NCBI GenBank assembly: GCA_050261115.1
Contig: JBLNCY010000006.1
Span: 32,001 to 96,000, forward strand
DNA from: Methanocella sp.
Lineage (GTDB): Archaea; Thermoproteota; Bathyarchaeia; Bathyarchaeales; Bathycorpusculaceae
DNA: 64,000 nucleotides
Reading direction: 5' to 3'
In this document: one piece after another, positions 2,461 to 63,258 of the stretch
Layout of the letters: each line of letters begins with the position of its first letter
How positions within the stretch are numbered: position 1 is the stretch's first letter
Made by a program: the position numbers and the translations under genes
Notes under the pieces: generated by a model
What the model was told of the DNA's origin: nothing
What the model saw: the letters and a program-made list of their open reading frames with translations, nothing else
Databases searched by the model: none

Positions 2461-2530
2461 GGCTTCTGTTGCTTTGCCATAGACTCCCCTCCCTTATATA
2501 TAGAACCAACCTTAGGTTGAACTCTACTTG
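2461..2530 (-). repeat. Dispersed intergenic element, copy A
   Basis: Minus strand reads TCAACCTAAGGTTGGTTCTATATATAAGGGAGGGGAGTCTATGGCAAAGCAACAGAAGCC; matches copies at ~22.2, 31.1 and 63.2 kb. Confidence 0.8.
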
Positions 2531-2651
2531 AGAAACGCACGCAGAATCCGCTATTCAGAGCAATGCTCCTAGCGTATAACAACTTTCAAGGCAGCACTCA
2601 TATAAAAAACAAAAGAAAGAGGGTAGCGAGGCGGGGCTCGCGTCTCTTGGT

Positions 2652-4091
2652 TTATTCGGTGTGGACTCGGTATAGGTCGATGTCTTCGCGCATTGTCGGT
2701 GTCAATTCGAGGAAGTCTCTGACTGCACGTTCAATGTCTTTGCTCTGTGTGACGTATCTGCCGACGATGAGGATGTCTGCGCCTTTCTCGAGTGCTTCTT
2801 TGGCTGTTTCTGGAACGATGCCGCCTGCGACTGCGATTAGGAATTTCTTGTTGGGGAACGCTTCACGGATGAGTTTTATGCGTTCAAGTCCGCTGCTTCG
2901 GCCGGTTTCTTGGTCGATGCCTCTGTGGAGTATGACGATGTCGGGTAACTCTTTAATTGACCTAAGTTTCGCCAAGACGTCGTCTACGTTTAGCATGTCG
3001 ACGACTGCGTAGATACCGAGGCGTCGGGCTTCTTGTATGGTTGCATCCAGGGTTTCTGCGGGGCCGATGCCTGCTGCTACAACTGCATCAGCGGTGTCTT
3101 CGTATGCTATGTCAACTTCGACTTTGCCTACATCGAGGGTTTTAAGGTCTGCGATGACGAATTTGTCTTTGGCCATGGCGCGGATGTCGTTTATAACGCG
3201 TGTACCATAGCGTTTGATCATTGGGGTACCGACTTCAAGGATGATTCGGTCGCTCCCAGGCAAGTTCTCGATGACTTTCTTTGCACCTTCAAGCGATGGT
3301 GCATCCAAGGCGATCTGGAGGTAAGGGGGTCGCCATAGGCGCGGAACTTTAAAGCCCATAATCGGGTGCTTTGCGCGGTCCTTGTCGTAGTTGACTTTGT
3401 CTATTGGCGGGTACTTCTTGATTGCACGTTGGAGCGCCATCTTGGTTGCGCCGTAGTTGTATTGGTAGATTTTACGGTAATCAGTTGCTTGAGGATGAAT
3501 GAACACGCTGGCGATGATTACCCATTCGTCGAGTTTTGCCGCTGGGATGACGCCTTCTTCGGCTGCATCGGCGATCGCTTTGGCGACTGCTGCCTGTGCG
3601 GGGCCAAAGATTTTGCCTGTATCCTCCATGTTTTTAACGGTTACTTTTGGCACGATTAAGGTGTGTGGCTTAGGCGGCAAGTTAGGACGCACAACGGCTA
3701 GCAGGGGGGTGTGTCCTGCGGATAGAGTGGTCAAGCCCATAGCGAATGCTTGACCGACTGGGCCGTTTTTGTCGCCTACCATGAGGTCAACATGGGCTAC
3801 CTCGTTACCTTCACCCACCAGGGATTCGCCGATGAGGTAAGTTGGGCTTGAAGCCTCGTTTGCGTCGTCAGTGGCTGTCGGCATTTTATCGACGATTTCT
3901 TTGAAGTCGACATTAAACTCTTTTAGCCACGAATAAAGTGTGTCTCTGTGAATATCCATTTCTTTTGCGGTACCGATGATTGTCGGTTTTGTCGGCTTAC
4001 CTTTTGAGCCGACCTCTTTTTTAGCCGCTTCTGTGAGCATTTTTATAAATTCTTCGCGTGAGACTGGTTTTTTAGCATCCATACCCGACAT
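2652..4091 (-). CDS. fae-hps: Bifunctional formaldehyde-activating enzyme / 3-hexulose-6-phosphate synthase with extra N-terminal HTH
   Basis: Fae motifs [34 protein letters not shown]; Hps motifs [26 protein letters not shown]; about 80 aa N-terminal extension with [19 protein letters not shown]. Confidence 0.9.
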
Positions 4092-4115
4092 ATATTAATC
4101 CTCAGTCGGTCCTTG

Positions 4116-4134
4116 TATCAGCGCTGATATATAA
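4116..4134 (-). promoter_or_regulatory. fae-hps promoter: TATA-like box plus 14-bp palindrome
   Basis: TATCAGCGCTGATA (4116-4129) is a perfect palindrome overlapping a minus-strand TTATATAT about 35-40 bp upstream of the ATG. Confidence 0.5.
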
Positions 4135-4296
4135 GACTGTCGGATGCCCAGTGGGAATATGTGTTAAGTACCTGCCATGTTTACGCGGATTTGTCGATTT
4201 AGCGTCTTTTTGTTTAGCGGGGTTCAGCAGAGCATGTTTGCTCTAAATCTTTATATCCCAATGGCCCGCATTGAATGCTAACTCACAGGGATCACC

Positions 4297-4527: not shown

Positions 4528-6107
4528 AAACCATAGAAGCTACTGTACTTCGTGTTTAAGTACCGAATAAACGGCGCCGAATCCAATTCTGATCCTGTTG
4601 CCTGCTTGATGAGGTCTTGGGGATCATAGAGGTTGCCTTTGAGGTGTATGTTCTCTTTTAGCCACAAATTAATCGCGGCTAGGTTTCCCTCTGCGAGTTG
4701 ACTGCGCCAATCCGGCAACGCCCCAGCCAATGCATCAATTATCATGCCATCATAGATGTTTCCCAATGCATAGCTGGGGAAGTAACCGTAGAGTCCACTT
4801 GCCCAATGCGTATCCTGCATAACACCCTCCGAATCGTCTTTAACTTCTACACCAAGGTACTCTTGGTATTTCTGGTTCCAAACCTGCGGCAACTCATCGA
4901 TTCCGATTCTGCCGGCAAATAGGTCGCGTTCAAGCTCGAAGCGTATGATTATGTGGATACTGTAGGTAACTTCGTCGGCTGCTATGCGGATTTTCGAGCG
5001 CCCAACCCGATTAATAGCCCTAACAAACGTGTTTAAGTCGAGGTTTGATAGGCTTGGCGCGATCTGCTGGGCCTTGGGTAGGAACCTGCCCCAGAACTCG
5101 GAGGAGCGTCCGATGATATTTTCGTAGAATCGGGATTGCGATTCGTGGACGCCGTAGCTGGCGGGGCTGCCCACGGGTTGATACATCCAGGCAGGGTTGA
5201 GGTTTTGCTCATAGATGGCATGCCCGGTCTCGTGTAGCACAGAGAAGATGGAGCTGGTGCAGTCTTGGGGGTAGTAGTGGGTGGTTATTCGTACGTCTTG
5301 GTAGTAGCCGCTTGTGAAGGGATGCTCAGTTTCATCCACTCGCCCCGCCGCGTCGGATGAGTTGGCGTCATAACCCAATGTTTGAGTAATTAGCTGGGTG
5401 AGTCTGCGTTGCTCCTCAACGGGGGCACAGGGCGGTTTTTTTGTTTGCGGCGGCTGAACTTTCTCGATTTTCTCAACAAGCGGCCTCAAACCCGCCAAGA
5501 GCTGTGTGAAGGTGGCGGTTATGGTTTGGGCAGACATTTGGGGTTCATAGTTGTCGATGAGCGCTTCATAGGGCGTCTTGGTCTGCTTGATTTTCATTAG
5601 GACCTCGGCTGCTTCCACAGTGAGGTCAAAGAGTTTTTGCAGGTCGGGTTTGAAGAGGCTATAATCTTTCTTTGCCTTGGCCTTTTTCCAGGCATCCACA
5701 GTTATGGCTTCCTGTTTAGCTAAGTCGCCCACGAGTTTCTCAGGTAGGGCGGTTTGCTCTAGATAGCTTTTGTTGATGAGGTAGATGTTGCGTTTCTCTA
5801 CTTGCCCCAGTACGGGGTACTCTGGGCTAGCCTGGATGGTTTGGAGAAGCTGGCCTATTTGGGGGTTTGTGGCCAGTTTATGGTTAAGGCGGCTCAGTAG
5901 GGCTAGTTGTTCGCTGCGTTGGTTTACCGCTCGAGGCGGCATCATGGTTTCCATGTCCCAGTGGAGGATACCCTGTGCCGTGGAGAGCACGATGGTTTCT
6001 TTGGTTTTTGCTAAAAGTTCCCTGTAAACTTGAGTTATGTCTGCTGTCAAGTGCTGTTCATCCCAGTTCTCAGAAGAATAGTCTGCTTTATTTACATTAA
6101 GTGCCAT
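4524..6107 (-). CDS. Carboxypeptidase, M32 (Taq) family
   Basis: HPF, DVRITT, HETGH zinc motif, HESQS, QDTHW, GYFPSYALG; true start may be slightly downstream. Confidence 0.93.
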   Translation of the reverse strand: MALNVNKADYSSENWDEQHLTADITQVYRELLAKTKETIVLSTAQGILHWDMETMMPPRAVNQRSEQLALLSRLNHKLATNPQIGQLLQTIQASPEYPVLGQVEKRNIYLINKSYLEQTALPEKLVGDLAKQEAITVDAWKKAKAKKDYSLFKPDLQKLFDLTVEAAEVLMKIKQTKTPYEALIDNYEPQMSAQTITATFTQLLAGLRPLVEKIEKVQPPQTKKPPCAPVEEQRRLTQLITQTLGYDANSSDAAGRVDETEHPFTSGYYQDVRITTHYYPQDCTSSIFSVLHETGHAIYEQNLNPAWMYQPVGSPASYGVHESQSRFYENIIGRSSEFWGRFLPKAQQIAPSLSNLDLNTFVRAINRVGRSKIRIAADEVTYSIHIIIRFELERDLFAGRIGIDELPQVWNQKYQEYLGVEVKDDSEGVMQDTHWASGLYGYFPSYALGNIYDGMIIDALAGALPDWRSQLAEGNLAAINLWLKENIHLKGNLYDPQDLIKQATGSELDSAPFIRYLNTKYSSFYGF

Positions 6108-6202
6108 AGCAGCGCTTTACTGTTACTGGGACAACGGAGGTACCTATGAGTTAGTGATGGCTTGCTTGCAAAACCTTTTATTCTCCTACCACTGAATTTC
6201 AG

Positions 6203-6892
6203 TTGAGGACTTTTGAATTGAGTTCTAATGCAGATACAAGTAAAATGATAGCGGCAATCGGCGCATTACTTCTATTCCTAACCATCATACCAGGAGCAGG
6301 CATAATTGGCATCATCCTACTTTTCATCGGGCTCAAAGGCTTATCAGACTACTACAGTGATCAAAGCATCGTTGGAAACGCATTCAAAGGCTTAATCTTT
6401 GGCATAATCGGCTCCATCGCAGCTACAGCGTTATCAGCAACAACCATATTCGGATTATTCACCATCGCCCCAGTTACTAACGGCATCTTGGCATTCTTGG
6501 GCACCATCGCATTAACCATCGTGATCTTGATTGTGGCATTCATATTCTACGTATTAATGGCCATGAACTTCAGACGAGCATTCAACACATTAGCCCAGCG
6601 TTCAGGCGAAAACATGTTCCGCACAGCAGGAACCCTCCTCTGGTGGGGAGCAATCCTAACAATCATATTCGTCGGCATAATTCTAGTCTGGATAGCCTGG
6701 CTAATCCTAGCGATCGCCTTCTTCTCAATGAAACTAGCGCCCACACAAGCCTACACACCACCATACCAAGCCCCTCCGCCACCACCCTCAGGCACAGCAG
6801 CAGCGACAAGATACTGCCCCAACTGCGGCGCCCCCGTAGACGCAAACGCCACCTTCTGCCCAAACTGCGGAAAACCGCTTCCGCCACCCTAA
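6203..6892 (+). CDS. DUF996-like membrane protein with C-terminal zinc ribbon
   Basis: Multiple TM helices, GLKGLSDYY, FRTAG; CPNCG...CPNCG; paralog at 48808-49419. Confidence 0.75.
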   Translation: MRTFELSSNADTSKMIAAIGALLLFLTIIPGAGIIGIILLFIGLKGLSDYYSDQSIVGNAFKGLIFGIIGSIAATALSATTIFGLFTIAPVTNGILAFLGTIALTIVILIVAFIFYVLMAMNFRRAFNTLAQRSGENMFRTAGTLLWWGAILTIIFVGIILVWIAWLILAIAFFSMKLAPTQAYTPPYQAPPPPPSGTAAATRYCPNCGAPVDANATFCPNCGKPLPPP

Positions 6893-7058
6893 CCTTTTCT
6901 TTTTATTTTTTGTAGCTACTCACCAGTAACCACATAGATTTATGAACAAAACAAACAGGCATTAAGTTGAAGTGTAAACCATGAACACCACACCATTTTT
7001 TCCCTGCAGATCAAATCCCCCCCGGGCACCCCCAGTCCCAAAAGAACCACTAGATACG

Positions 7059-7181
7059 ATGCCTAGGAGTAATCTTGTCTGTGAAATATGCGGAAAAGTC
7101 TTCAAGGTACATAGCGAGCTTGACAGACATAAAGAGAACGCTCACGGAACACCCGAGAAAACACACCTCACACGCCACTAA
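7059..7181 (+). CDS. Small C2H2 zinc-finger protein (~40 aa)
   Basis: MPRSNLVCEICGKVFKVHSELDRHKENAH fits C-x2-C-x3-F-x5-L-x2-H-x4-H. Confidence 0.6.
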   Translation: MPRSNLVCEICGKVFKVHSELDRHKENAHGTPEKTHLTRH

Positions 7182-7211
7182 ACACAACAAAATTTGTATA
7201 AAGGAGAGTAG

Positions 7212-7286
7212 TGCTCCGGCCGGGATTCGGACCCGGGTCACCGACTCGAAAGGCCGGTATACTTGACCGGACTATACTACCGGAGC
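7212..7286 (-). tRNA. tRNA-Glu (TTC)
   Basis: Acceptor GCTCCGG/CCGGAGC, anticodon arm CCGGC-CTTTCGA-GTCGG, T arm CCGGG-TCCGAAT-CCCGG; no intron, CCA not encoded. Confidence 0.93.
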
Positions 7287-7356
7287 ATGCAATAGTCCGA
7301 GGCACAAGCAAAATACAAACTCTTATGAATAAACCTTGCTCTTCCAGAGACAAAAA

Positions 7357-7896
7357 TTAGCTTTCAAGTTTCCTCTGCTTACCTTTTTTGGCGACCGTTT
7401 TGGGGGCAAACAGATGGCCCGTAATCTGGTCTACAAGCTTGGATTGGTTATTATAGGTCTCTTCAAGCTTCGCAACCCGCCTCTCTAGGTCGCTTGATAG
7501 GATACGGCCCTCGATGCGGTTTGAGCTACGAAACATTAGCATCATCTTGAAAATCTCTGAAATTGCCTTATCCTGATCTTGAGCTGAAGCAGGCTTGATG
7601 CCCGCGACGATGGAGAGCAAGTCGATGTAGTGCTCCTTGATTTTAAGCTCAGCAGTTAGGGAAGGATCGTTTGGGAACGCGATATTTAGGGGGGTTTTCT
7701 TTGCAAGCTCCGCTGCCGTGGGAAACCTTATAATAATGTCGCCGCGAATCCATGAGGAGACGAATTCATGCACAAACTGGCGGACCTGCTCCTTTGAGTA
7801 AAGCGCTGACGGCCCGGCTGGCTGTTGGGGTTCTTGCTTTCGCTTGATCCGCACGTTAATTATTTTTTTGTCATCTGCATTCACTGGATTAGACAT
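7357..7896 (-). CDS. Hypothetical protein
   Basis: 179 aa ORF with GAGGGGG RBS and C-terminal coiled coil; no family recognised. Confidence 0.65.
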   Translation of the reverse strand: MSNPVNADDKKIINVRIKRKQEPQQPAGPSALYSKEQVRQFVHEFVSSWIRGDIIIRFPTAAELAKKTPLNIAFPNDPSLTAELKIKEHYIDLLSIVAGIKPASAQDQDKAISEIFKMMLMFRSSNRIEGRILSSDLERRVAKLEETYNNQSKLVDQITGHLFAPKTVAKKGKQRKLES

Positions 7897-7971
7897 AATT
7901 CCCCCTCATGTACTTCTCTTATGTATATTCACCTAATCAAGCACTAGTATATAAAAAACACATGCCCTTGT

Positions 7972-9252
7972 CTAGAAAGAGATTTTTTCTGTGGAAGGTA
8001 TCTTTCCTAGCACTTTTGAGGTGGCTTTCTCGACTCTTGTGCGGTTCTCCGCATCTGTGTAGACGCGCAGTATGTTCATGAAGCCTTTAAGGGTCTCAAA
8101 AATCTTGGAGCTTTCACTTAACCGTTGAAGCTTCTTCTCCCCAGCGGGGCTCCGTGTAAAGACGGGAAGCTCAGTTGAACCCATCAAAACCGCATGATGG
8201 TAAGGCACAGAGGGCACCGTGGGCACATCGATAATAACAGCATCCAAACCAACGCCTGCCGCCTTAGCGATTTCCCCGCGGATCTTGTTGCGGTAGGATT
8301 CTTGCCTAAAAAGCTCAGAAATCATATCATCCTTTTCATAAAAGGTACGCTCATAGGCGCATTTGAGCATACGGCGGTTCTCAAGGTTATTTATGATTTC
8401 ATTGGAGGCACGGCACTTCCGCAGGGCACCCCAAATCGTGTAGTCATCTATTGCTAGATACTCCTCGGGAGTTTTGAATGAGGTTAAACGGAGTTCTTCA
8501 TTGGCTTTTTCCATGGCAGTAGAGAGCATAATCTGGGCAGCTCTCCCGACACGGTGGAAGTAGATACTCTTGAAAGACTCAATGCGGGCGATCACGAAGG
8601 CCTCAAGCGCCGACAAAGCCCCAAGCTCCACCGCAAGGTTTTCTCCCAAAAGGTCAAGGGCATGAATGAGCCGGTAAACATCGATGAAACCGTACTCGGC
8701 GCCAGTATGATACGTGTCACGGACGATGAAATCCATTTTGTCCACGTCTACAGCGCTGCTAATGATTTGGTCTAGGAACGCTCGGTCTTTGCGGTCGAGT
8801 TTTCCAACGGCTAGGGCAGCGATTTCTTTGGGGTTGTAGCCCATTTTTGCGAGTATGTCGGCGACTTCGCTTTTCTCTATTAGCCAGGATGTGATGTCTT
8901 CATGGGTCTTGTGTAATTCTTTTTGGAGTAGGTGCTCAAACACATGAGAGAAGGGTCCATGTCCGCAGTCATGCAGAAGCGCTGATATGCGGCACATATC
9001 GACTTCTTCACTACTGGCTACTTGGGAGATGTTAGGGTTTATGAGAACCTGCCCGGCCAAGTACATGACGCCTAGGCTGTGCTCAAAGCGGGTGTGATTG
9101 GCGCCGGGGTAGACGTATTCTGAGCCTGCCAATTGCCGTAGCCTTCGGAGGCGCTGCATGGGGTAGGTGTCGATTATGGCTTTTTCGTCCTCAGTAATGT
9201 ACACATAGCCGTGTACGGGATCTTTGATTTCTCCCCAGTAAACTTTAGGCAA
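7972..9252 (-). CDS. HD-domain phosphohydrolase (SAMHD1-like dNTPase family)
   Basis: DPVHG, QRLRRLRQL, HTRFEHSLG, LLHDCGHGPFSH, DVDKMD. Confidence 0.9.
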   Translation of the reverse strand: MPKVYWGEIKDPVHGYVYITEDEKAIIDTYPMQRLRRLRQLAGSEYVYPGANHTRFEHSLGVMYLAGQVLINPNISQVASSEEVDMCRISALLHDCGHGPFSHVFEHLLQKELHKTHEDITSWLIEKSEVADILAKMGYNPKEIAALAVGKLDRKDRAFLDQIISSAVDVDKMDFIVRDTYHTGAEYGFIDVYRLIHALDLLGENLAVELGALSALEAFVIARIESFKSIYFHRVGRAAQIMLSTAMEKANEELRLTSFKTPEEYLAIDDYTIWGALRKCRASNEIINNLENRRMLKCAYERTFYEKDDMISELFRQESYRNKIRGEIAKAAGVGLDAVIIDVPTVPSVPYHHAVLMGSTELPVFTRSPAGEKKLQRLSESSKIFETLKGFMNILRVYTDAENRTRVEKATSKVLGKIPSTEKISF

Positions 9253-9332
9253 GAGGCATCACCGTTTGGATGGTTTATTATTTAGGTAAGTCCCTATAAT
9301 GTGTAGCGCTAAGCACACTTGGCTGTGATTGT

Positions 9333-9941
9333 ATGATAAAAAAGGGACTATTTATTGTGATTGAAGGGTTAGATGGCAGCGGCAAAACCACACAGGCAGC
9401 ACTCATAGCAGAAAAACTCGCGAAAAACCATAACGTTCTCTTAACAGCTGAGCCTAGCAAAGGCAAAACGGGGACCTTTATCCGCGAATGCTGCCTCTAT
9501 GGCGATAAGCGTTTGCCTATCGAAGCCGAAGCACTACTGTTCGCGGCAGACCGCATCGAGCACATGTACAGCGAAGTAAAACCCGCGCTAGACGAGGGAA
9601 AAATTGTTATCTGTGACCGCTACATCTACTCTTCATTGGCCTATCAGGGCAATTCGGGGCTAAGTTTGGATTGGATAAAGACCATTAACGCCCGCGCGTT
9701 GCAGCCTGATATCTGCCTTTTTATCGATGTGCCGCCTGAAAAAGTCATTAAGCGACTGCAGCGTAAGAGGTCAGTTATGGAGACGCTGGAGACTCAGCGG
9801 AAGGTCAGGGAGGTCTACTTGAAGTATGTGGAGAAGGGCGAGCTTGTTAGGGTTGATGGAGATAAAGCAGTGGAGCTGGTCGCTGAGGAGCTGTTTAGGG
9901 TTGTTTGGGGTTTGATTGAAGCAGCCCAAAAATATGTCTAA
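9333..9941 (+). CDS. tmk: Thymidylate kinase
   Basis: IEGLDGSGKTT, LLFAADR, CDRYIYSSLAYQ. Confidence 0.95.
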   Translation: MIKKGLFIVIEGLDGSGKTTQAALIAEKLAKNHNVLLTAEPSKGKTGTFIRECCLYGDKRLPIEAEALLFAADRIEHMYSEVKPALDEGKIVICDRYIYSSLAYQGNSGLSLDWIKTINARALQPDICLFIDVPPEKVIKRLQRKRSVMETLETQRKVREVYLKYVEKGELVRVDGDKAVELVAEELFRVVWGLIEAAQKYV

Positions 9942-10035: not shown

Positions 10036-10368
10036 CTAATCCTTTAGCCCCATCATGGACATGGGATCATCGTGATCATGTTCATGCTCGCTTTCTTCGC
10101 TGATGTGATGTGCCACATGGAATCCTAACCCTGTTGAAGCACCTGCGGCTAACCCAACCAGCAGATAAGTTAACCAGTTATAGCCAAAAACCAAGCCGAC
10201 CACAGCTAACACGTCAAAAACAATTGCCATGGCAAGATAACCAGCACACCAGGTCTTCATGCTCATCCCACGGGGCTTGTTGATGCCGATGATGCCGAGA
10301 TAACCAAACATGATGATGAAACCGAGTAGGGCTATTATCAAGTTTATTGTGTTTGCATCTAGATCCAA
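10036..10368 (-). CDS. Small three-TM membrane protein with His/acid-rich tail
   Basis: Probable TTG start at 10368 after GGTGAAGG; tail HVAHHISEESEHEHDHDD. Confidence 0.65.
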   Translation of the reverse strand: MDLDANTINLIIALLGFIIMFGYLGIIGINKPRGMSMKTWCAGYLAMAIVFDVLAVVGLVFGYNWLTYLLVGLAAGASTGLGFHVAHHISEESEHEHDHDDPMSMMGLKD

Positions 10369-10523
10369 ACCTTCACCCTCATAGCTGGCTATGTCCCGCT
10401 TGAGCTTAATTAGTCTATTGGGAAAAGCATCAAACATCGCAGAAACAGTAAGTTAAGCGATTAAATCTTTGCTAGCCTTTTTTAGTATCAACCTGTTGTT
10501 TATTGCCCTTAAGGCGTGGATGC

Positions 10524-12644
10524 ATGAACTTTGACGTTAGGCACTGCCATAAATGGGCACAACTTCTAAACGAACGCAAAGCCAAACTAAACCAAGCATT
10601 AGAAGCGATTGAGAACCGAGAATTCCAAGCGGCTAAGTCCCTTGTCGCCCAGATCTTCGGTGGAGCCGCGGCAAAAGGGTCTGACCCCGGCATGGGAGGC
10701 TCCCTCCTCTACCACATGGCTATGGTAAGCAAGATGGAGTCCGAAACCCAAGTGCTACTTGACGAGTTGCACGTAAAGCAGCCAGACGTCTCAGCAGGTC
10801 TCAACCGGATATACGGCGACTTCTACGCCGACGCCCAAGAATTAACCAAAGAATTCATGCACTTAAACTACAGTGCCGATGTGATCGCCAAAACCAAGCG
10901 TCTTGATAGCGAAGAAAAAATCGCCCTATTTACCAAACTCAGAGAAGCACAGATACAGATCGAAAACCAGCTAACCAATAAGGATCCCAAGGCAGCCCGA
11001 GCCCTAGAGAAACTCTTTGACGACTGGGCGCAGCAAGTGGTGCTTATGAGGTTTATCCAAGAATATGAGACCATCAAAGGTCTCCTTACCCTTACCGAAC
11101 TGGTAAAGACCCATGGATATGAAACTGTTGAAACCGCCATGAAAAAGGTAAAAGACGAGTTCGGCCAAAAAACCGTCAGCATCGCATTAGAAGTTACGCT
11201 TCGAGTTGGCATGCGCCGCGAAAGACTCCAATCAGTCATGCTAGCAGACCACTGGATCAACATGGCCATGGATGGCTCCACGCTTGACGGTAGGATGGAG
11301 TTTCTCAACTGCCCCATCCACGGCGGCCACCACTACGCCCAAGAAAAATATGGCATAGACCCCAAAGTTTCAACCTTGTTCTGTAACAATTTCTGTTTTG
11401 CACACGCCAAAGCCATGCTTGACATAGTCCTCCCGTTCCCGTTCACGCTTTGGCAGCCTAAATTGATGGCTAAAGACGGCGTATGCGAATACTACCTTAA
11501 ACTCGCCTATTCACCCCAAGCACAAACCCAAGAACGCTATGTCCCACTTGTAATGTCCTATAACGTCACACGCGAATGCAACCTGAAATGCAGCCACTGC
11601 TACATTAACGCCACCGACAAAAAAGCAACCGACGAATTAACCACAAAAGAAGCCAAGGAAGTCATTGACCAAATCTATCAAGTCAGCAGCCCCCTGCTCA
11701 TCTTAAGCGGCGGCGAACCACTCCTACGACCAGACATCTTTGAACTCATCGAATATGGCTCCAAGAAAGGCCTAAAGATAGGTTTAGGAAGCAACGGCTA
11801 CTTGATTGATGATGCTTGCGCAAAGAGACTCAAAGAGGCAGGCATAGCCACCGTCTCAATCAGCATAGACTCAAGCATACCCCAGCAGCATGATGAGTTC
11901 CGGGGAGTAAAGGGCGCATGGGAAAGAGCAGTCAACGCCTGCAAAGCCCTACGAAAGCACGGCGTACTAGTTCAAGTTAACACCACCCTAACCCATGACA
12001 ACTATAACCAAATAAACGACATCATGACCCTCGCAGAGTCGGTCGGGGTTGAAAACTTCCACCTCTTCTTCTTAGTACCAACGGGTCGAGGCGTCAAGTT
12101 AACTGACATTTCACCGCAAAAATACGAAGACATGATAACCAACACCTTCGCAAAAGTGCATAAACACAGATTAAATGTCCGCCCCAGTTGTGCGCCTCAG
12201 TTCATGCGTATTGCGCAGGGCATGGGCTTGGATATGAGGCAATGGATGCGTGGTTGCCTTGCAGGTATGCATTACTGCCGCATCTACCCCAACGGCGACA
12301 TAACCCCCTGCCCCTATCTGCCAATCAAGCTGGGCAACGTAAAGGAGCAGAGCTTCAAAGACATCTGGTTTAACTCAGAAGTGTTCAAGAACCTCCGCAA
12401 CCCAGAGTGCCTTAAAGGCAAATGCGGCAAATGCAATTACAAAGTAATCTGCGGCGGCTGTAGAGCACGAGCGTATGGCCTCTCCCATGACTTCATCGAC
12501 TACTGCGGAGACCTAAACGTGCCCGGAGTTCAAACTAAAGACTACATGGCTGAGGACCCATGGTGTGTCCATAAACCAAACGCCGAACCAAACAAAGCAA
12601 AAAAGGACGCTTTGAACAGAAAGGAGTCGCTAAAATCAGCCTAA
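10524..12644 (+). CDS. Radical SAM/SPASM protein (AhbD/NirJ-like) with large N-terminal extension
   Basis: CNLKCSHC, SGGEPL, SPASM GCLAG...PCPYL...CGKCNYKVICGGCRARAY; about 330 aa N-terminal region including CPIH/FCNNFC/C motif. Confidence 0.85.
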   Translation: MNFDVRHCHKWAQLLNERKAKLNQALEAIENREFQAAKSLVAQIFGGAAAKGSDPGMGGSLLYHMAMVSKMESETQVLLDELHVKQPDVSAGLNRIYGDFYADAQELTKEFMHLNYSADVIAKTKRLDSEEKIALFTKLREAQIQIENQLTNKDPKAARALEKLFDDWAQQVVLMRFIQEYETIKGLLTLTELVKTHGYETVETAMKKVKDEFGQKTVSIALEVTLRVGMRRERLQSVMLADHWINMAMDGSTLDGRMEFLNCPIHGGHHYAQEKYGIDPKVSTLFCNNFCFAHAKAMLDIVLPFPFTLWQPKLMAKDGVCEYYLKLAYSPQAQTQERYVPLVMSYNVTRECNLKCSHCYINATDKKATDELTTKEAKEVIDQIYQVSSPLLILSGGEPLLRPDIFELIEYGSKKGLKIGLGSNGYLIDDACAKRLKEAGIATVSISIDSSIPQQHDEFRGVKGAWERAVNACKALRKHGVLVQVNTTLTHDNYNQINDIMTLAESVGVENFHLFFLVPTGRGVKLTDISPQKYEDMITNTFAKVHKHRLNVRPSCAPQFMRIAQGMGLDMRQWMRGCLAGMHYCRIYPNGDITPCPYLPIKLGNVKEQSFKDIWFNSEVFKNLRNPECLKGKCGKCNYKVICGGCRARAYGLSHDFIDYCGDLNVPGVQTKDYMAEDPWCVHKPNAEPNKAKKDALNRKESLKSA

Positions 12645-15020: not shown

Positions 15021-15626
15021 GTGAGTGAGCCTTTTGAAGCCTTCATAGAAGCCAACATAGAACCCAACACACTGTTGATTACCTGTGGATTACCTGCCAG
15101 CTACAAGACTGGAATCGCCCAGGAAATCTCCAAACGGAAAGGGTATCCTATTCTGCGAAGTGACCTCATACGGCTAGAAGTGCTAAAAGACCAAGACATC
15201 TTTGACACTAAAGTAGCCGGCAACATGGATAAGCGTCTATCGGTCTATGAGGAAATGTTTAGACGCGCCGACGAGTTAGCCTCAAGAGGCCAAAGAGACA
15301 TAATTCTGGATGCGACATTTGTCACTGAAGACCTCAGGCTCCAGGCAGCAGAGATAGCAGCAAAGCACAACATGTCCTTTGTAATCGTGGAAACAAGCTG
15401 CCCCCAGGAGGTTGCGCTGGAAAGAATAAAGAAACGCACCAAAGAAAAATATGAATCCAACGCCCTAACCGAAGAAGCCTACTGGGCAAACAAGAAAAAA
15501 TACCAACCAGTTAACGTGGATGAGATCAAAAAAAGGTTCCCAACCCTCAATGTAATGCACATAACCGTAGACACCTGCCAATACGGCATGGCTAACTGGC
15601 GCATAGTAAAAGTCGAAAAGAGGTAA
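15021..15626 (+). CDS. P-loop kinase, AAA_33/COG0645-like
   Basis: CGLPASYKT Walker A variant, RSDLIR, ILDATF. Confidence 0.75.
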   Translation: MSEPFEAFIEANIEPNTLLITCGLPASYKTGIAQEISKRKGYPILRSDLIRLEVLKDQDIFDTKVAGNMDKRLSVYEEMFRRADELASRGQRDIILDATFVTEDLRLQAAEIAAKHNMSFVIVETSCPQEVALERIKKRTKEKYESNALTEEAYWANKKKYQPVNVDEIKKRFPTLNVMHITVDTCQYGMANWRIVKVEKR

Positions 15627-15634
15627 AAGTCCAA

Positions 15635-16510
15635 TTGGCAATCGACTTACATATTCACTCAAGCGCATCTGACGGCAAACTATCCCCCCAAGAACTAATC
15701 AACCAAGCCAAAGCCCGTCAGGTTGCTTTTATGTCAATCACAGACCACGACAACATCAGTTGCCAAGAAGCCGCAATAAATGCAGCTAAAGCCGCAGGCA
15801 TAGATTACGTGACCGGCGTTGAACTTAACGTCACCTTCGCAAACCTCAAATATAAAGAGGGCAAACCGTTCTCGCTGGATTTTCTGGGCTACCAATTCAA
15901 CCCAGAAGACAAAGCGCTGGAGAAAAAGCTTGGCTTGATGGTGAAGTACCGTGAAGAACGCGCCGCCAAAATCCTTGCCAACCTCAACGCTGAATTCAGA
16001 AAAGAAAACATTTCCCCGCTAACCCCCCAAGATCTGTACAGGATTCAAGAGAATGTTGAGGGCAGTTTGGGGCGACCTCATATCGCTGACTACCTTGTCC
16101 AGAAGGGGATAGTGGCAGACCGCATGGAAGCCTTCGAAAAGTACCTCGTCAAATGTGACGTTCCCAAGTACCCGCTGCACCTCGAAGAGGCCTCCAAACT
16201 GGTCAGAGACGCAGGCGGAAAACTGGTTTTGGCGCATCCCTGTGATGCATGCGGCATTTCGCTTTTGCCAATAACCAAGGGGCTAGCAGAACAAACCCAG
16301 ATAATCCAAGAAACCATGCTACCCTACATCGACGGCATTGAGTGCTGGCACCCAAGCCATACCCCAGAATCAACACGCCATTACGTAGACTTCGCCAAGA
16401 AGCATGGGTTACTCATGACCGGCGGCAGCGACTGCCACCAAAAACCCATCATAATCGGCACCACAGAGGTACCGGGCTGGGTTGCTAAGCAGTTTAGGAA
16501 ATGGAATTAG
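15635..16510 (+). CDS. PHP-domain phosphoesterase (YciV/TrpH-like)
   Basis: DLHIHSSASDG, ITDHD, GRPHIA, LAHP, TGGSDCH. Confidence 0.9.
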   Translation: MAIDLHIHSSASDGKLSPQELINQAKARQVAFMSITDHDNISCQEAAINAAKAAGIDYVTGVELNVTFANLKYKEGKPFSLDFLGYQFNPEDKALEKKLGLMVKYREERAAKILANLNAEFRKENISPLTPQDLYRIQENVEGSLGRPHIADYLVQKGIVADRMEAFEKYLVKCDVPKYPLHLEEASKLVRDAGGKLVLAHPCDACGISLLPITKGLAEQTQIIQETMLPYIDGIECWHPSHTPESTRHYVDFAKKHGLLMTGGSDCHQKPIIIGTTEVPGWVAKQFRKWN

Positions 16511-17514
16511 AGGTTTTTTGCGTACTGCAATGCTAGCTTGAAGTATGCTTGGGCATCTTTTGTTGCGGCTTGCTTGTCTTGGGCGGTTATGTTTGGGTCG
16601 TCGAGTCGGAAGCTTATAACTTTGCCTCTGACGTAGGCGCGGTAGCACTTGTAGAATGGCAACAGCGTCTTTAGCTGGGCGTCTTTTGAGTACTGTAGGT
16701 ATTGGTTGATGAAGTAGTGGGCTAAATCGGCGCGGTTTTGATAGTCGAGGTCCATGGCTAGGAAGGCTACGTCTGCGGCGACGTCGCTGTAGCGGAAGCG
16801 GTCGTTGAATTCTATGGCGTCAAAAATGCAGATCTGGGGGGTTATGAATATGTTGCCTGAGTGAAGGTCGCCATGGCAGTCGCGAATCTGCCCCTCAGCC
16901 ATGCGTGCCTCAAAAAGCGCATGGTTTGCTTCCATGAAGGTGTTGATTTGGGTTTGTATAAACTCGTAGTCCTCGCTGCTTAGGGTTTGCCCTATGTATT
17001 TGGTTGTTTGGGCAAAGTTTTCTTCCCAGTTAAACCGGGTTGCTTTGATGCCGCCGATTTCGGTTATCTCGGCGTTTGTTTGGGCCGCGGCGTGGAATTT
17101 GGAGACGATGGCGGCTATATCGTCGATAGTTTTCTTGTCGACTTTGCCCTCTTGGAGGAGTTGGGTCATGATGCAATCTTTGGGTAAGCGCTTCATTTTC
17201 AGCGCGTACTCGACGACTTCGCCGGAACCGCCTATTTTTAGGTGGTCTGATTTGTTTATGGAGACGACTCCGAGGTATATCTCGGGGCAGAGGCGCCTGT
17301 TTAGTTGGAGTTCTTTTTCACAATAGTGTTTTCTTTTTTCGAGGGTGGAGAAGTCTAGGAAGCCAAAGTTAACGGGTTTTTTGATTTTGTAAACGTAGTT
17401 TTCTGTTAGGAAGATAAAGGAGATGTGGGTTTGGATTAGGTCAATTTTTTCGGTTTCTTCGGGATATGTTTGGGGATTGAGCATCGCAGTGACTAGGGGG
17501 TTTTGGGTTTGCAT
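16507..17514 (-). CDS. Aminoglycoside-phosphotransferase-like kinase (COG2187-like)
   Basis: QTHIS, YKIKKPVNFGFLDFS, ELQLNRRL, CHGDLHSGNI, FDAIEFN, YRAYVRGKV. Confidence 0.85.
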   Translation of the reverse strand: MQTQNPLVTAMLNPQTYPEETEKIDLIQTHISFIFLTENYVYKIKKPVNFGFLDFSTLEKRKHYCEKELQLNRRLCPEIYLGVVSINKSDHLKIGGSGEVVEYALKMKRLPKDCIMTQLLQEGKVDKKTIDDIAAIVSKFHAAAQTNAEITEIGGIKATRFNWEENFAQTTKYIGQTLSSEDYEFIQTQINTFMEANHALFEARMAEGQIRDCHGDLHSGNIFITPQICIFDAIEFNDRFRYSDVAADVAFLAMDLDYQNRADLAHYFINQYLQYSKDAQLKTLLPFYKCYRAYVRGKVISFRLDDPNITAQDKQAATKDAQAYFKLALQYAKNL

Positions 17515-21797: not shown

Positions 21798-22221
21798 AGT
21801 ACTTCCGCTTCGCGCCTTTAGCAAATATATTCTGTAGTTATAAATGTTACCGTCTAGAACGCAAAAGGCTGCGGATGCTGCATAGAAATCAATTTAGCGG
21901 CATCCTGAGCCATCTAGATGCGTTAAACGTGTGTAGTGTCCCCCTATCGTTTGCAACGCTACGCAGCCACAGCCATATCACTTGCTAGACAACCCAAACA
22001 GTAACCACCCATATAACCACAACACCCAAAAACAACCAAAAAGACACAAACACTCACCGCATATATCAATTCAGAACTTCCTGATTAGCAGCGACCTATG
22101 GCAGAACGATTTCAACCAAAAACAGCTGTGCAGCCAACAACCAACCCAGCAGGCATCCACTCAGCGCCCTCCGTATGGAACTAACAAACACCCAAACCCA
22201 CACCACCTCCATCCTGCGGTT

Positions 22222-22272
22222 GCTGAGTCTATATACAGGGGAGGGATTCTCGGCAAAGCAACAGACGTCGAC
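22222..22272 (+). repeat. Dispersed intergenic element, copy C
   Basis: GCTGAGTCTATATACAGGGGAGGGATTCTCGGCAAAGCAACAGACGTCGAC. Confidence 0.75.
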
Positions 22273-29747: not shown

Positions 29748-30336
29748 CAACCGTTATTTCGAGTGGAACAGATAAAGGCTACAGTACAAAAAAATGGTTT
29801 TGAACAACAACATTCCTAAAAGAAGACAAAAACAGGCAGAAACAACCTATCAACCCAAGGATAGACTCACCCGTTGATTTCTACTGGAAAAATCAACTAA
29901 CTTTACACTAACCCATATTATAGTATAACATAATAATATACTCTGAGTTGTAAATTAGCTTTGAATATATTAATGATTGTTGTCCAAAAAAATAGATAGA
30001 CTCTCAGAAATTATTTTTCGACCGCTTCTCAACTTCTTTTTTCCCCTAAAACTCTCGAGAGGAAAAAGAGGGGTGCCTCTCTGATCTGAATTCCATGGAA
30101 GAAAGCTTGTAAGCTGTCCCTTTGCTTCAATATTTTGCCATGGCTTGCTTTGCTCCTTACCAAAGTTCGCCTAGTGACCTCTTGATTGCCAGGTTTGGGT
30201 GGCTTAGGGGTTCACAAAACTGTGAATACATGTGAAATAGCAATAAATCTGTAGCTTTATCAAGCTTCTTTTTCGGAGATTTACTTGTTTTCTGTCTGTT
30301 AACAGTGAATGTGGCACCCCTTGGCTTCTACTGGAG
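29748..30336. other. Replication origin oriC (ORBs plus AT-rich DUE)
   Basis: ORB-like boxes: 29748-29769(-) GTTCCACTCGAAATAACGG, 29868-29890(-) TTTCCAGTAGAAATCAACGGG, 30054-30074(+) CTCGAGAGGAAAAAGAGGGGT, 30316-30336(-) CTCCAGTAGAAGCCAAGGGGT; AT-rich 29891-30050 lies between an inverted pair; directly upstream of cdc6. Confidence 0.88.
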
Positions 30337-30530
30337 AACTCGATTTAAGCTGGAAAGATAAATCTTTTAACCGTTTGTTTTTCTGTGAAGCTTGTAATTC
30401 TAAAAACAATTATAAAATAAGTTATTTACTGAAAATAAGCTTGAATTGGGCTTTTTATTTTGGCTGTTTTCACCATCACAGTTATATGCTGTGAAGCTGT
30501 AGAGTTGTGAACAACCTAGGTGTCTAATTA

Positions 30531-30962
30531 GTGCCGACTCGCAAAATGCGCGTGGAGCTCTTTGACAATGAGGGCAATCGGTATACCATTGCCTTTGAGG
30601 GTCAAGTGACCCGCGACAAAGCTCTACGCCTGCTTGATCTTGTTGAATTGCTAGGCGGCACACCGAATGAAACATCAAATATAACAAGTCCAGCAGTACC
30701 CAGTCCTCGTCAACTGTCTCGTTTTGAGAAGGTTCAAGCAGTAATTCAGAAGAATTTCCCCTTAATCTGGTTCTCATCCAAAGACATTCAGGCAGTCTAT
30801 GAGCAGGAATTCAAAGAACCTGTCAGCCTAAGCACCATATCCACCTACCTCTCCAGAATGGCCTCAAAAGGCATGCTTATGCGCACTGGCACCTCCAACA
30901 ACCTCAAGTACAAGACTGCCCCAAACATTCCAGCGACAATCAAGCAGCGTATAATAAAGTAG
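30531..30962 (+). CDS. Origin-adjacent winged-helix DNA-binding protein
   Basis: C-terminal wHTH FSSKDIQAVYEQEFKEPVSLSTISTYLSRMASKG; small N-terminal beta domain. Confidence 0.75.
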   Translation: MPTRKMRVELFDNEGNRYTIAFEGQVTRDKALRLLDLVELLGGTPNETSNITSPAVPSPRQLSRFEKVQAVIQKNFPLIWFSSKDIQAVYEQEFKEPVSLSTISTYLSRMASKGMLMRTGTSNNLKYKTAPNIPATIKQRIIK

Positions 30963-30963
30963 C

Positions 30964-31009
30964 TTCACAAGCCCTTCACAACAGTTCACCACTGTTCACA
31001 GGGTTCACA
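30964..31009 (+). repeat. Helically phased TTCAC(A) direct-repeat array
   Basis: TTCAC at 30964, 30975, 30985, 30995, 31004. Confidence 0.8.
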
Positions 31010-31083
31010 ACATGCTTGTATTAGGTTGACGATTATTGGTAGCTGCCCATATTTTTTAGCATGCTATTTAGTTGAGTTGAGTT

Positions 31084-31155
31084 GCGTCTCTTGCTTTGCC
31101 AAGAGACCCCTCCTTATATATATAGAGTCAACCTCGGGTTGAACCTGGTCTTGAA
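31084..31155 (-). repeat. Dispersed intergenic element, copy B
   Basis: Minus strand reads TTCAACCCGAGGTTGACTCTATATATATAAGGAGGGGTCTCTTGGCAAAGCAAGAGACGC. Confidence 0.8.
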
Positions 31156-31243
31156 AGCATACCTGCAAAAATACTAGCCTCACGGAACCCTTTAGTAGTA
31201 AAGCCCAGGAGACTGTCTATTTTGCAGTGGAAAATAAATTCGG

Positions 31244-32125: not shown

Positions 32126-32466
32126 CTGTGATTTTTTCGTGATTCAACCGTGATTGTCACGTGATTATGATGATTTGTGATGATTACATGTGACATTAAC
32201 AGTTGCGTCACATATCACAAGTATCTCCATGGAAATTTAAGCCTATCGGTGACATTTTTCCATGAATTCATGACGTCACACATCACGGAAAACCGAATTA
32301 ATGCTTCTGTGATATCTATCCTTGGTTAAAGAGGCTTAATTTAAGCTTATTTTGTCGAAATAACTGTTATATTGGAGCTTGTGTGATGTGTGATAAACTA
32401 CCCCAAAATAGTGCAAAAATAATGGAAAAATTCGTGATTTGTGACGTCACAAAGGCTCTTGTGATG
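32111..32466. repeat. Dense GTGAT/GTGAC motif cluster
   Basis: About 20 GTGAY/RTCAC copies in ~350 bp by manual count; GTGAT at 32128, 32139, 32150, 32161 (11-bp period). Confidence 0.85.
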
Positions 32467-33288: not shown

Positions 33289-33406
33289 CTCACAGTTCAC
33301 AATCCCGAAAAACCACGTGATATCACCAAAAAATGCGTGATTTTAGCCTTAAACCACTTGATATCACAGCGTTGTGATGCACCTGTGATGCCCAAATACC
33401 CATGGA
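33289..33406. repeat. Second GTGA/TCAC motif cluster
   Basis: About 8 copies in ~100 bp including GTGATATCAC and TGATATCA palindromes, ending in CCATGGA. Confidence 0.75.
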
Positions 33407-40352: not shown

Positions 40353-40502
40353 CTGGAAAACTTTGGCTAGCCGCCATAATTAAAGGTTAAACCCTGGAAA
40401 AGTTTGTTTGGTTTATGCTTTTGTATACAGACGGTGATTTTAGCTAGCAAGCTGTAAACAACAGATAAATAATCACAGTCTTAAACCTACACTTGATAGA
40501 TT

Positions 40503-57573: not shown

Positions 57574-58054
57574 ATCAGCTTCTCCTAAACAAAAAGCGAT
57601 TTACCGATCTAGCCTGCTTCCTATGCCTTGACCTTCTATCAACTCATTACAGACGTGGTATTTTAAGTATCTAGCCATAAAACGACCTCAACCGTGGAAG
57701 TGACAAAATGTCTAGACTGCCCAAGAATGGTAAAACTCGTCAGAAACGCCGTTTTCAAGCGTTTTCCGTGCATAATCCGCAGAATGCGTCTGTCTACTTG
57801 CAGAATCGTTATGCAACCAACAGCAGCTCAGCATAAACGCAGACAGCAAAACAGACGTTTCTGCCCAGCTCTAAGAAAAAGCTTCTATAAGCGGGTTCAC
57901 AGCAACTTCTAATATTAAAAAACGGTTAACCAAGGGCAATGGCGCGGCATCCTGTTCTTCTTTATTAATCAAAAGGTTTATTGCGGTGAGTGGAAACTAA
58001 ACCTATGCATTTATCAAATCAAGCTTACCATTTAACATTCAAAGATGAAAACCT

Positions 58055-58636: not shown

Positions 58637-58649
58637 GAGAGAAAAATTT

Positions 58650-61143: not shown

Positions 61144-61735
61144 TCAGGATCTGCGCGTTTAGGGCAGGCAGCGTTGCCACGTCTTCGGCGTTGAATGGCC
61201 CGTAGGATTTCAGGTCTGCGCCCATAATTGCGGGGATGCTTTTGATGAATCGTAGCGTTAGGCGTTTATGGGTTACGTGTGTTTGGGGTTTGAGTTCGGG
61301 TTTTGCTGTTGGCGTTTGTGGGGTTGGGGTGGCTTGGGTCAGGGTTGGCTGGGTGATGGTGACTGTTATTTGGGTTTGTTGGCCTTGCATGAGGTTTTTG
61401 GCAAATTCCGTGTAGGCGTTCTCGAAGCTCACAAGGTTTTGACACATCTTAGCTTCTTCAGTGGTTAAGAGCTCGATGGGCGCTCGGTGCATGCGGGTTA
61501 TGGTTTTGAGGATTTTTCGGTACCGCATTGACAGGAGTTCTTCAAGCATCCGCTCCACGTTGCGGGCTTCATGCTCAAGCAACTTAACTTTAACTGACTT
61601 GTTATCCAAAGCGCCCTTGTCTTCTTTAATGTGGGCAAGGTATTCTGTTAGTCTAACGTAGAAGTCAGGCTCTAACCCCCCTAGGGTGGGGTCTTCGATT
61701 TCCCTTTTCCAAGCTGCAAAAAGCTGATCATACAT
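61106..61735 (-). CDS. gins51: GINS subunit (Gins51/Gins15 type)
   Basis: Helical A domain (L-PDFY, R--KI, LTTEE), linker, C-terminal B domain IPAIMGADLKSYGPF; downstream of priS. Confidence 0.82.
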   Translation of the reverse strand: MYDQLFAAWKREIEDPTLGGLEPDFYVRLTEYLAHIKEDKGALDNKSVKVKLLEHEARNVERMLEELLSMRYRKILKTITRMHRAPIELLTTEEAKMCQNLVSFENAYTEFAKNLMQGQQTQITVTITQPTLTQATPTPQTPTAKPELKPQTHVTHKRLTLRFIKSIPAIMGADLKSYGPFNAEDVATLPALNAQILIKQGLAVAVEVS

Positions 61736-62977
61736 CTATAGTACCACCTCAGCCCTTCGTTTACACATAAGCAGCACTGCAGCAGCGGTTGGCAACTCAA
61801 CCGTTTGATTCTTATATGGCCCCAAGGTCTCCCCACACATCCTAAACTCTGGCGCATCAGACACCAACACTTTCACTTCACCCTTTTTAAAAGCTACCGC
61901 TCCGCTAAACGGATCAAAATCAAGGATGTCTTTAGCTGGGAACTCGACTTTTTTAAGTCCCGTTTTGCCGTGAAGGGTGCCGTTCATGCGGATAAGGCGG
62001 TGGATGTCGGTGGTGACGACAGTGTCAATTTTAGCCGCTTGTTCCTCGTGGATGTGCTCGGCTAGTTTTAGCCATGTTGCTTCGCTGACTCCATGGACGG
62101 CTTCCCACCTGCCCTCCTGTATGGCACGTTTGATGGCTGTGTCCCTGTTTTCTAACAGAGATTTGTTACGTAAGCCGATTTCTTTAAAGTCCTCTGGGCT
62201 GGCTTTTTCAAGGAAGTGTTGCATGCCGACTTTGAGGCGTCGATTCCAACCGTAATTGTGTAAAATGAACTTTTTGGCGCCTCCCCTTTTTTTTCGCTTA
62301 GCCGCTTCTTCCTTACCTTCTCTATCCAGGATCCCTAAGCCTAGCCCCGTTACATAATCCACGATTTCTTTGCGGGCCATAGCATCCAAAGAGCGCACGG
62401 CTTCGCTTTCAAGGTGTAAGTGGTAACCGCGGTGCCCTGAAAAGAATGTGCGAACCTCATGCTGTGCAAACCCAAAATCCTTATCCAACATATCCAGCAG
62501 CTTAACAACTTCGTCACGGGCGGATTCAATGCATTGGTCGCATGCCCAAATGCGGGTTTCGAACTTGGTCGCTTCACAGCAGGGGCAAGACTCGGGGGTT
62601 ATGCCTCGGCCTTGAAAGCCGCATTTTACGCATCGGAATTCGTCATGGATTTTGTTGCATTTGGTTGGGATGTGGTCGGCGTCGATATCGAAGACTATGT
62701 CGCTTCCTATCCAGCCCTTCTTGTCCATGTCAAAATCGGGGTTCTCATAATAGGCGCAACTGTGGTAGACGTCGGAGGGGGTGGTTTGGGCTAACAGTTT
62801 TCTGAAGTCATTTATGTTGATAAACCGTCGGTGGCGAACCATAAATTTCTCTTTAAACGTGAGGTAGCCGAATTCACGTTGCTGAGGCAGCGGCGGCGAG
62901 GGAACAGCATTAGCTGGGTCACGGTAGAACTCGCTAAACTTTTGGAATAAGTATTCCCTAGAAGCCTCGGCACCCAT
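61736..62977 (-). CDS. priS: DNA primase small subunit
   Basis: REFG, VFDIDAD, FSGHRGYH, IDTVVTTDIHRLIR; zinc insert. Confidence 0.94.
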   Translation of the reverse strand: MGAEASREYLFQKFSEFYRDPANAVPSPPLPQQREFGYLTFKEKFMVRHRRFININDFRKLLAQTTPSDVYHSCAYYENPDFDMDKKGWIGSDIVFDIDADHIPTKCNKIHDEFRCVKCGFQGRGITPESCPCCEATKFETRIWACDQCIESARDEVVKLLDMLDKDFGFAQHEVRTFFSGHRGYHLHLESEAVRSLDAMARKEIVDYVTGLGLGILDREGKEEAAKRKKRGGAKKFILHNYGWNRRLKVGMQHFLEKASPEDFKEIGLRNKSLLENRDTAIKRAIQEGRWEAVHGVSEATWLKLAEHIHEEQAAKIDTVVTTDIHRLIRMNGTLHGKTGLKKVEFPAKDILDFDPFSGAVAFKKGEVKVLVSDAPEFRMCGETLGPYKNQTVELPTAAAVLLMCKRRAEVVL

Positions 62978-63205
62978 ATCGTTCCCTCTCGGTTGGAGTT
63001 ATTTGTGGGTTCCAACATTTAACCCTAACCGACGCTATAGCCCGATTATAGAGCAATCAAGGGCAGAAGTATTCAGCTGGAGGTTTATGCACAGCTTACG
63101 CCGATACAAATATGCAGCTAAAAAGTGTGCCCTGTCTACAACCATGTAAGTATTCCACCAAAAAACCAACAAACATACAGAAAGGCCTGACTGTTGCTTA
63201 CAGTC

Positions 63206-63258
63206 GCTGAGTCTATATATGGGGGAGGGGGTCTCTGGGCAAAGCAACAGACGCCGAC
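63206..63258 (+). repeat. Dispersed intergenic element, copy D
   Basis: GCTGAGTCTATATATGGGGGAGGGGGTCTCTGGGCAAAGCAACAGACGCCGAC. Confidence 0.8.

Follow-up and report, generated by a model that had tools for sequence, protein, structure and literature searches.

The 64,000-nt stretch of Methanocella sp. analyzed here (Bathyarchaeia; contig JBLNCY010000006.1, positions 32,001 to 96,000), hereafter the window, carries four short intergenic copies of a motif that a sequence-only reading had described as an unrecognised non-coding element. The four copies are real, yet they constitute only the ~44-nt core of a larger modular repeat. Comparison with a related metagenome-assembled genome (MAG) gives, in our estimate, an even chance that this is a lineage-restricted, non-coding, non-autonomous mosaic repeat, dispersed between the genes of one branch of the Bathyarchaeia and moved by a trans-acting mobiliser. 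It is most likely a small parasitic DNA element, not an RNA gene or a part of the replication origin, and it is apparently an undescribed variant of the intergenic mosaic repeat kind, the mechanism of which we infer. Its patchy range, the turnover of its sites, the long homology between unrelated loci, the shuffling of its modules and its single sharp end all point to a dispersed non-autonomous element.

All four copies were found again at the positions and on the strands first given. A gapped 23-base pattern matches the window at 2469–2503 (−), 22229–22261 (+), 31091–31125 (−), and 63213–63247 (+) only, and has no match in any of 100 dinucleotide shuffles of the window. With a three-block position weight matrix (PWM), each copy scores 41 to 51 bits in leave-one-out tests, and the next-best window site under the full PWM reaches 6 bits. 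The four cores are 80 to 86% identical to one another, and the 60 nt on their 3′ side are 57 to 63% identical, compared with 53% for random 60-mers (95th percentile 60%). The extent first assigned to the element is too short: the real units span 22117–22265 and 63105–63251, and a fifth related unit (57792–57923), like the modular repeat as a whole, had been overlooked. Hidden Markov models (HMMs) built on the MAG copies only detect the two longer units with E 9.1e-10 and 7.5e-13, respectively, the best E in the reversed-window control being 1.3. Both subclasses that the sequence-only reading had distinguished do exist, with its labels A to D out of listed order: the copies at 2.5 and 31.1 kb are the ones with the CAACC-N3-GGTTG inverted repeat, and GCTGAG is found at 22.2 and 63.2 kb. 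Because the MAG-only HMMs extend the 22.2 and 63.2 kb copies ~105 nt upstream, over most of the end module, and match the core alone at 2.5 and 31.1 kb, the subclasses correspond to the two module types, start and end, that make up the arrays in the MAG.

A strict gapped pattern scanned against 185,579 GTDB species returned 14 loci: a single archaeal MAG (CAWALK01 contigs) accounts for 12, and the other two (L003 and L004) are bacterial. In two syntenic blocks, the MAG is 74 to 84% identical to the window in DNA and 62 to 96% in protein. Its 12 matches represent 11 sites once a near-duplicate contig (96–97% to L010) is collapsed; within the L010/L013 pair the identity continues across genes, which gives it the look of a strain duplicate. 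The locus covered by L010 9929–16770 and L014 75–11763 was assembled twice at 96 to 97% identity, one version carrying a ~4.9-kb insertion of accessory genes. The strict pattern catches part of the family, as six more clusters are present in ~198 kb of MAG flanks. The bacterial loci score 18 and 27 bits; the window copies, themselves part of the training set, score 44 to 54 bits. From the strict pattern, ~1.2 chance matches are expected (arithmetic with uniform bases). Both bacterial loci were treated as chance matches, with L004 borderline: its 27-bit core match (609–659, minus strand), in a hairpin between convergent genes of a bacterial contig, is probably fortuitous, yet it is the strongest non-archaeal match. 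A blastn search of phage and plasmid collections with two units gave no match. A literature search that included the exact motif, with subscription papers and supplements outside its scope, found no description of the repeat, the exact motif leading to three unrelated mammalian papers, and the term "Bathyarchae" is absent from the main text of a recent survey of archaeal transposons (PMC13343696).

Copies at unrelated MAG loci are homologous over 200 to 330 nt with 69 to 88% identity. None of the four window sites has homologues of its flanking genes in the MAG loci, which also lack homologues of cdc6 and DP1 (62 window open reading frames (ORFs) were tested, and pcn was retested on the right strand). 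Strict copies therefore occupy different sites in the two species, degenerate copies at the equivalent sites being possible.

The anatomy of the repeat was derived with an iterated matrix (threshold 17 bits) run on 273 kb, comprising the window and the MAG loci. It detected 32 cores of at least 17 bits, four in the window and 28 in the MAG, while five shuffled sets top out at 11 bits. All 32 cores lie between annotated genes, overlapped by shadow ORFs only, in arrays of up to ~500 nt, and the units, which face either way, lie clear of genes and of the stretch directly upstream of them. A unit is composed of up to three boxes 31–32 nt apart, followed after ~39 nt by TATA, a G-run and AGCAACA; it stands alone or is repeated head-to-tail. 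TATAWATA is nearly invariant, and its distance to AGCA is 26 to 31 nt (29 nt in 12 of 28 copies). The MAG cores cluster in one orientation with a period of ~178 nt, mostly 171 to 190 nt apart, and 46- and 111-nt duplications are also present among these clusters. In all nine aligned units, a count from which the allele L013+1023 was left out as a strain duplicate, the successive spacings are 31–32, 31, and 38–39 nt to the next TATA; the same spacing is visible in an ungapped, TATA-anchored listing. The spacer between cores is 70% A+C. Several different upstream modules precede the first cores of the MAG arrays, and both upstream and downstream modules are exchangeable, forming mosaic combinations across units. 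A sister module of ~140 nt, which closes with a degenerate core set in a GTTGTTG/CAACAAC inverted repeat, follows some first cores or stands alone. At the 3′ edge of the 15 terminal copies, the information content falls to background 8 nt past the A of AGCA, whereas the 5′ ends vary. Two further short sequences were seen in this comparison. In three clusters of the MAG (L001, L009, and L011; e.g. L009 9937–9990), a truncated duplicate of the TATA/G-run is followed by a short module with GAGGTAGGTAG, and a 29-nt intergenic stretch of the window (40402–40430), possibly another small repeat, is 90% identical to L006 7237–7265, where it lies beside a copy of the sister module.

The boxes keep a spacing of three helical turns without an RNA fold, which argues for recognition as double-stranded DNA. 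One part of the earlier protein-site proposal is supported: the repeat is probably read as DNA by a protein. We propose that a recombinase or transposase acting in trans would bind the phased boxes along a single face of the helix and would generate neither terminal inverted repeats (TIRs) nor target duplications, possibly following the logic of an IS607-like serine enzyme or an IS91-like HUH enzyme. The core would serve as the end at which melting or crossover takes place, and exchange there or alongside could generate the tandem arrays, the module shuffling and, sometimes, bracketed accessory genes. The window copies would then be old, eroded units whose cores have been retained perhaps through current use, for example as TBP sites. 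As the sequence-only reading had noted, TIRs are lacking: the bounding motif types are in direct orientation, and no inverted ends are shared in the unit alignments. A search for target duplications at the 15 terminal copies gave scattered 5- to 7-nt matches at inconsistent offsets, the 5′ ends being ragged and the copies old. Two more specific ideas were abandoned. Inward-facing pairs of copies could have been the ends of 3- to 10-kb transposons, but they enclose housekeeping genes (among them thermosome, argS, gap, and tfb) and no transposase, and the one contig that has copies near its two ends nearly duplicates L010. The GTTCAAC-N5-GTTG module recalls integron attC/attI sites; this likeness was set aside, the module being found in a minority of copies and the spacer not being palindromic.

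Several observations weigh against a mobile repeat. The earlier remark that no transposase is evident holds more broadly, as no transposase, recombinase or reverse transcriptase was found in the 57 window ORFs, or in any of the 263 MAG ORFs of at least 70 aa (Pfam E ≤ 1e-8; ~0.2 Mb of the MAG). Insertion is presumed from sequence comparison, and young, identical copies are absent: over 200 nt, identity between loci reaches ~88% at best. The sharp end reads AGCAACAR and not GG as in IS607, although a crossover within the G-run would escape this comparison, and it is not followed by a constant tetranucleotide target of the IS91 type, the sequence there being at background information content. 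One allele, L013+1023, has lost ~9 nt between boxes 1 and 2. The strict pattern skips most degenerate copies; the narrow range holds for the strict consensus only, because diverged relatives escape it, and the true range may be wider. Finally, the window cores have stayed 80 to 86% identical while their downstream flanks are near random. Such retention also fits selection on a host function; it keeps alive the idea of a promoter cassette and, to a lesser degree, that of a host chromatin or replication site.

The promoter cassette is the main rival, doubtful though possible, and is compatible with a mobile repeat as a second role. Here the core would be a TBP/TFB promoter, the boxes and palindromes would be activator or operator sites, and a short non-coding or antisense RNA would start at AGCAAC and may spread via RNA. 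The transcription start of archaeal genes typically lies ~30 nt from the TATA box, and with the nearly invariant TATAWATA the TATA-AGCA spacing would place a pyrimidine-purine start at about this distance. Palindromes are located just upstream, of the GTTCAAC type and, in L005, as four perfect ATCCGATA-N8-TATCGGAT copies. Archaeal promoters do prefer a pyrimidine-purine start, as described in PMC7289017, and the Neisseria REP2 repeat is described as promoter-bearing without TIRs (PMC3184786). On the other hand, the 6 nt before TATA read T-(G/T)-A-N-(T/C)-C and do not form an A-rich BRE as defined in PMC7289017, and terminal copies have no conserved transcript downstream. The orientation of the 20 clusters, tallied on gene calls curated by hand, is also unfavourable: 12 run into the end of a gene, four of them 3 to 11 nt from its stop codon, and the eight that point at a gene start are never less than 150 nt away from it. 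A distinctly unlikely extension is an element that carries its own promoter and propagates itself, a kind for which no archaeal example has been described, spreading by copying of core-to-core RNA or by recombination at the cores. A transcript running from one core through spacer and boxes into the next core would have AGCAAC at both ends and would carry the next promoter, a logic like that of long terminal repeats or HeT-A. RNA copying or core recombination could then yield the sharp 3′ ends, the 5′-truncated solo units at 22.1 and 63.1 kb and the head-to-tail arrays, and genes for defence or toxin-antitoxin functions could be bracketed by pairs of units and travel as cassettes.

That the repeat consists of host sites for chromosome organisation or replication is unlikely. 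The dispersed copies, each with phased boxes, an AT-rich melting patch and the G-run, would be places where a host protein assembles into a nucleoprotein complex (the winged-helix proteins encoded next to oriC are possible candidates), or would act as auxiliary origins. The DNA-level conservation with helical phasing, an orientation independent of genes, the persistence of cores beyond their flanks and the one copy inside the oriC-adjacent module are in line with such a role. The tie to oriC suggested by the sequence-only reading nevertheless found no support in the MAG, the loci of which have no homologue of cdc6, DP1, the winged-helix genes, rpl3, rps6e, priS or pcn; no strict MAG copy lies within 10 kb of cdc6, DP1 or any module homologue, although degenerate copies at the MAG oriC would escape detection. 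Two of the module proteins belong to Bathyarchaeota-wide clusters dominated by Candidatus Bathyarchaeota, whereas the strict motif occurs in one of the 185,579 GTDB species. The module moreover has its own TGTGA/TCACA arrays (30.2–33.4 kb) and separate sites resembling origin recognition boxes (ORBs). Near oriC there are four copies in 64 kb, roughly double the density of unanchored MAG sequence (six clusters in ~198 kb) and not a strong enrichment. The copies show no polarity about oriC: the strands are −, + on one side and −, + on the other, and a KOPS-like role was rejected on the same ground. The repeat does not appear to explain the oriC module. A structured small-RNA family, the first option of the sequence-only reading, is very improbable. 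The TATA box does lie at a plausible distance, and the sister module forms a 10-pair terminal hairpin in seven MAG copies, without convincing covariation, the only two-sided changes being those of the decayed copy in the window, where most of the stem is disrupted. RNAalifold, on the other hand, finds 0 consensus pairs and no shared structure on the 28 cores, and 9 pairs with 0 compensatory changes on nine full units. Single copies fold with a mean z of −0.45; five of 30 fall below −2, with differing structures, and hairpins first seen by eye were discounted since they differ from copy to copy. The spacer composition is also unfavourable, and because conservation ends within 8 nt of the A of AGCA, terminal copies have almost no conserved transcript. 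Rfam has no match to the element: only tRNAs reach the gathering score in the window and in the seven of 12 MAG loci scanned whole, the best E for two element regions in E-value mode is 0.89, and ARAGORN detects no tRNA at the elements. Least likely of all, and hardly credible, is a family of tiny peptide genes in which GGAGG would be the Shine-Dalgarno sequence, followed by xAKQQ. ATG, GTG or TTG precedes this frame, 6 to 8 nt after GGAGG, in 11 of 32 copies. The remaining 21 have no such start (TCG in nine, CCC in five, CTG in two, others in five), ATG occurs once among the 32, the frames are 1 to 59 codons long, and near-identical units differ by single-base indels. The codon variation noted earlier in the window copies (ATG, TCG, TTG, and TGG) and the conclusion drawn from it, that a peptide gene is unlikely, both hold, and the element remains non-coding and unrecognised.

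Returning to the mobile mosaic repeat, its layout is closest to STAR, to the modular BOX, NIME, and BIME repeats and to REP2, as these are portrayed in the relevant passages of the cited papers. Like STAR of Staphylococcus aureus, it is an intergenic direct-repeat motif with recurring spacers, present mostly in one to a few copies per locus at species-specific, patchily distributed loci (PMC3532100). STAR is described there as a 14-bp GC-rich bacterial motif whose function and mode of spread are unsettled, whereas the archaeal core is ~44 nt long, with a TATA box, a G-run, a ~178-nt period and phased boxes; by inspection, core and STAR motif have no consensus in common. With pneumococcal BOX, for which non-autonomous mobility has been proposed, neisserial NIME and enterobacterial BIME, the repeat shares exchangeable modules in variable combinations between genes (PMC3184786). 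It differs from REP/BIME as outlined there in having no stable GC-rich palindromic stem-loop (0 consensus pairs, mean z −0.45), head-to-tail units and no cognate transposase found. REP2 is likewise a repeat of 120 to 150 bp without TIRs, with promoter-like and ribosome-binding-site-like sequence (PMC3184786), but in that account it lies directly upstream of ORFs and supplies their ATG, whereas the Bathyarchaeia cores carry ATG in one of 32 copies, with the nearest downstream start 150 nt away.

Among transposable elements, the ends of the IS607 family similarly have no TIRs and bear several short direct motifs in helical phase; they also make no target duplication, of which the repeat shows no consistent trace (PMC6188088). 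According to the same description, these motifs are ~10–11 bp apart with GG termini; the boxes of the repeat are ~31 bp apart, its end is CAACAR, and no TnpA/TnpB is nearby. IS91/ISCR rolling-circle elements have no target-site duplications (TSDs) and, like the repeat, one fixed end, and capture of adjacent DNA, as outlined for them, would explain bracketed cargo and ragged 5′ ends (PMC13181058). Unlike those elements as depicted there, the repeat shows no constant CTTG/GTTC target after the fixed end and no conserved subterminal palindrome in the main core, and no HUH transposase was found. Prokaryotic MITEs (miniature transposable elements with inverted repeats), in the portrayal of PMC10969869, resemble the repeat in being shorter than 500 bp, non-coding, multicopy and intergenic with decayed partial copies, but are defined by TIRs, which it lacks together with a stable transcript fold; consistent TSDs were not found in it.

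Among archaea, the small dispersed repeats known so far are mostly MITEs that have TIRs. A modular repeat without TIRs, with phased boxes and a conserved TATA, would be an archaeal counterpart to STAR, BOX, and NIME, the spread mechanisms of which remain open. It predicts a DNA-binding mobiliser or host factor in the Bathyarchaeia, for which the unit would be a precise DNA bait. Should the copies be active as promoters or as the ends of cassettes, they could be a source of antisense transcription and of accessory-gene movement in a lineage that is abundant and for the most part uncultured.

Table 1. Coordinates of the repeat components in the window
Feature	Position	Strand	Remarks
Core (TATA box, G-run, AGCAACA), start-type	2465..2508	−	Between fae-hps and rps6e; MAG-only HMM E 6.9e-5
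Upstream palindromic module, GTTCAAC-N5-GTTG type	2507..2522	−	Common to the 31.1 kb copy and MAG copies in L002, L005, L010, and L012
AC-rich phased-box array 5′ of core, overlooked by the sequence-only reading	22117..22223	+	Box PWM 17.7 bits; p 0.0006 versus intergenic, 0.005 versus AC-rich positions
Core, end-type	22224..22265	+	Ends 9 nt from stop codon of convergent dus, upstream of rpl3
Core, start-type	31087..31130	−	Between two convergent genes next to oriC; MAG-only HMM E 0.004
Upstream palindromic module, GTTCAAC-N5-GTTG type	31129..31144	−	
Decayed sister-module ("family 2") unit, degenerate TATA/G/AGCAAC end	57792..57923	+	Between DUF4256 and csl4; MAG-only sister-module HMM E 8.6e-7
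AC-rich phased-box array 5′ of core, overlooked by the sequence-only reading	63105..63207	+	Box PWM 7.9 bits; p 0.0017 versus intergenic, 0.012 versus AC-rich
Core, end-type	63208..63251	+	Between divergent priS and pcn

Pfam and NCBIfam assignments agree with the neighbours named earlier, namely rps6e/eIF2-gamma and fae-hps, rpl3 and dus, the cdc6/DP1 region, and priS and pcn, the last being on the plus strand and divergent from priS. The genes beside oriC include one for a winged-helix protein of MarR/TrmB-like type and an ORF of 143 aa that has no Pfam match; among the members of its Atlas look-alikes, 11 to 18% have Penicillinase_R. The 31.1 kb copy is ~1.2 kb from sites at 29758–29889 that we take to be ORB-like. 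These sites and another at 30326 lie upstream of cdc6 around an AT-rich stretch, and one of them is flanked by an 8-bp inverted repeat. TGTGA/TCACA arrays (30200–33400; 10, 4, 13, and 7 per kb in the 30–33 kb bins versus 0 to 4 elsewhere) surround three Bathyarchaeota-wide genes next to oriC, encoding the 143-aa ORF, a coiled-coil plus winged-helix protein and a 165-aa ORF. These arrays resemble iterons or centromere-like sites and would belong to a candidate module for segregation or origin control that is distinct from the repeat.

Many MAG copies lie beside housekeeping genes, and an enrichment near accessory genes is not supported. L005 contains a Fic/DUF4258 segment bracketed by direct repeats of 141 nt that are 79% identical; each of the two repeats has a core and a pair of perfect palindromes with 8-bp arms. 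The four ATCCGATA-N8-TATCGGAT palindromes (7750–7815 and 10070–10134, two per direct repeat) have differing spacers and surround this toxin-antitoxin-like segment; they might serve as operators or as recombination sites of a lox-like kind. In L008, a complete Lamassu defence system (5919–9635; LmuA-Cap4 nuclease, LmuC, and LmuB) lies 360 nt upstream of a core. L009 encodes a terminase large subunit-like protein (15154–16632, Terminase_6N), possibly a provirus remnant. In the window, a Radical SAM/SPASM protein (10503–12644) has an unrecognised N-terminal extension of ~340 aa.

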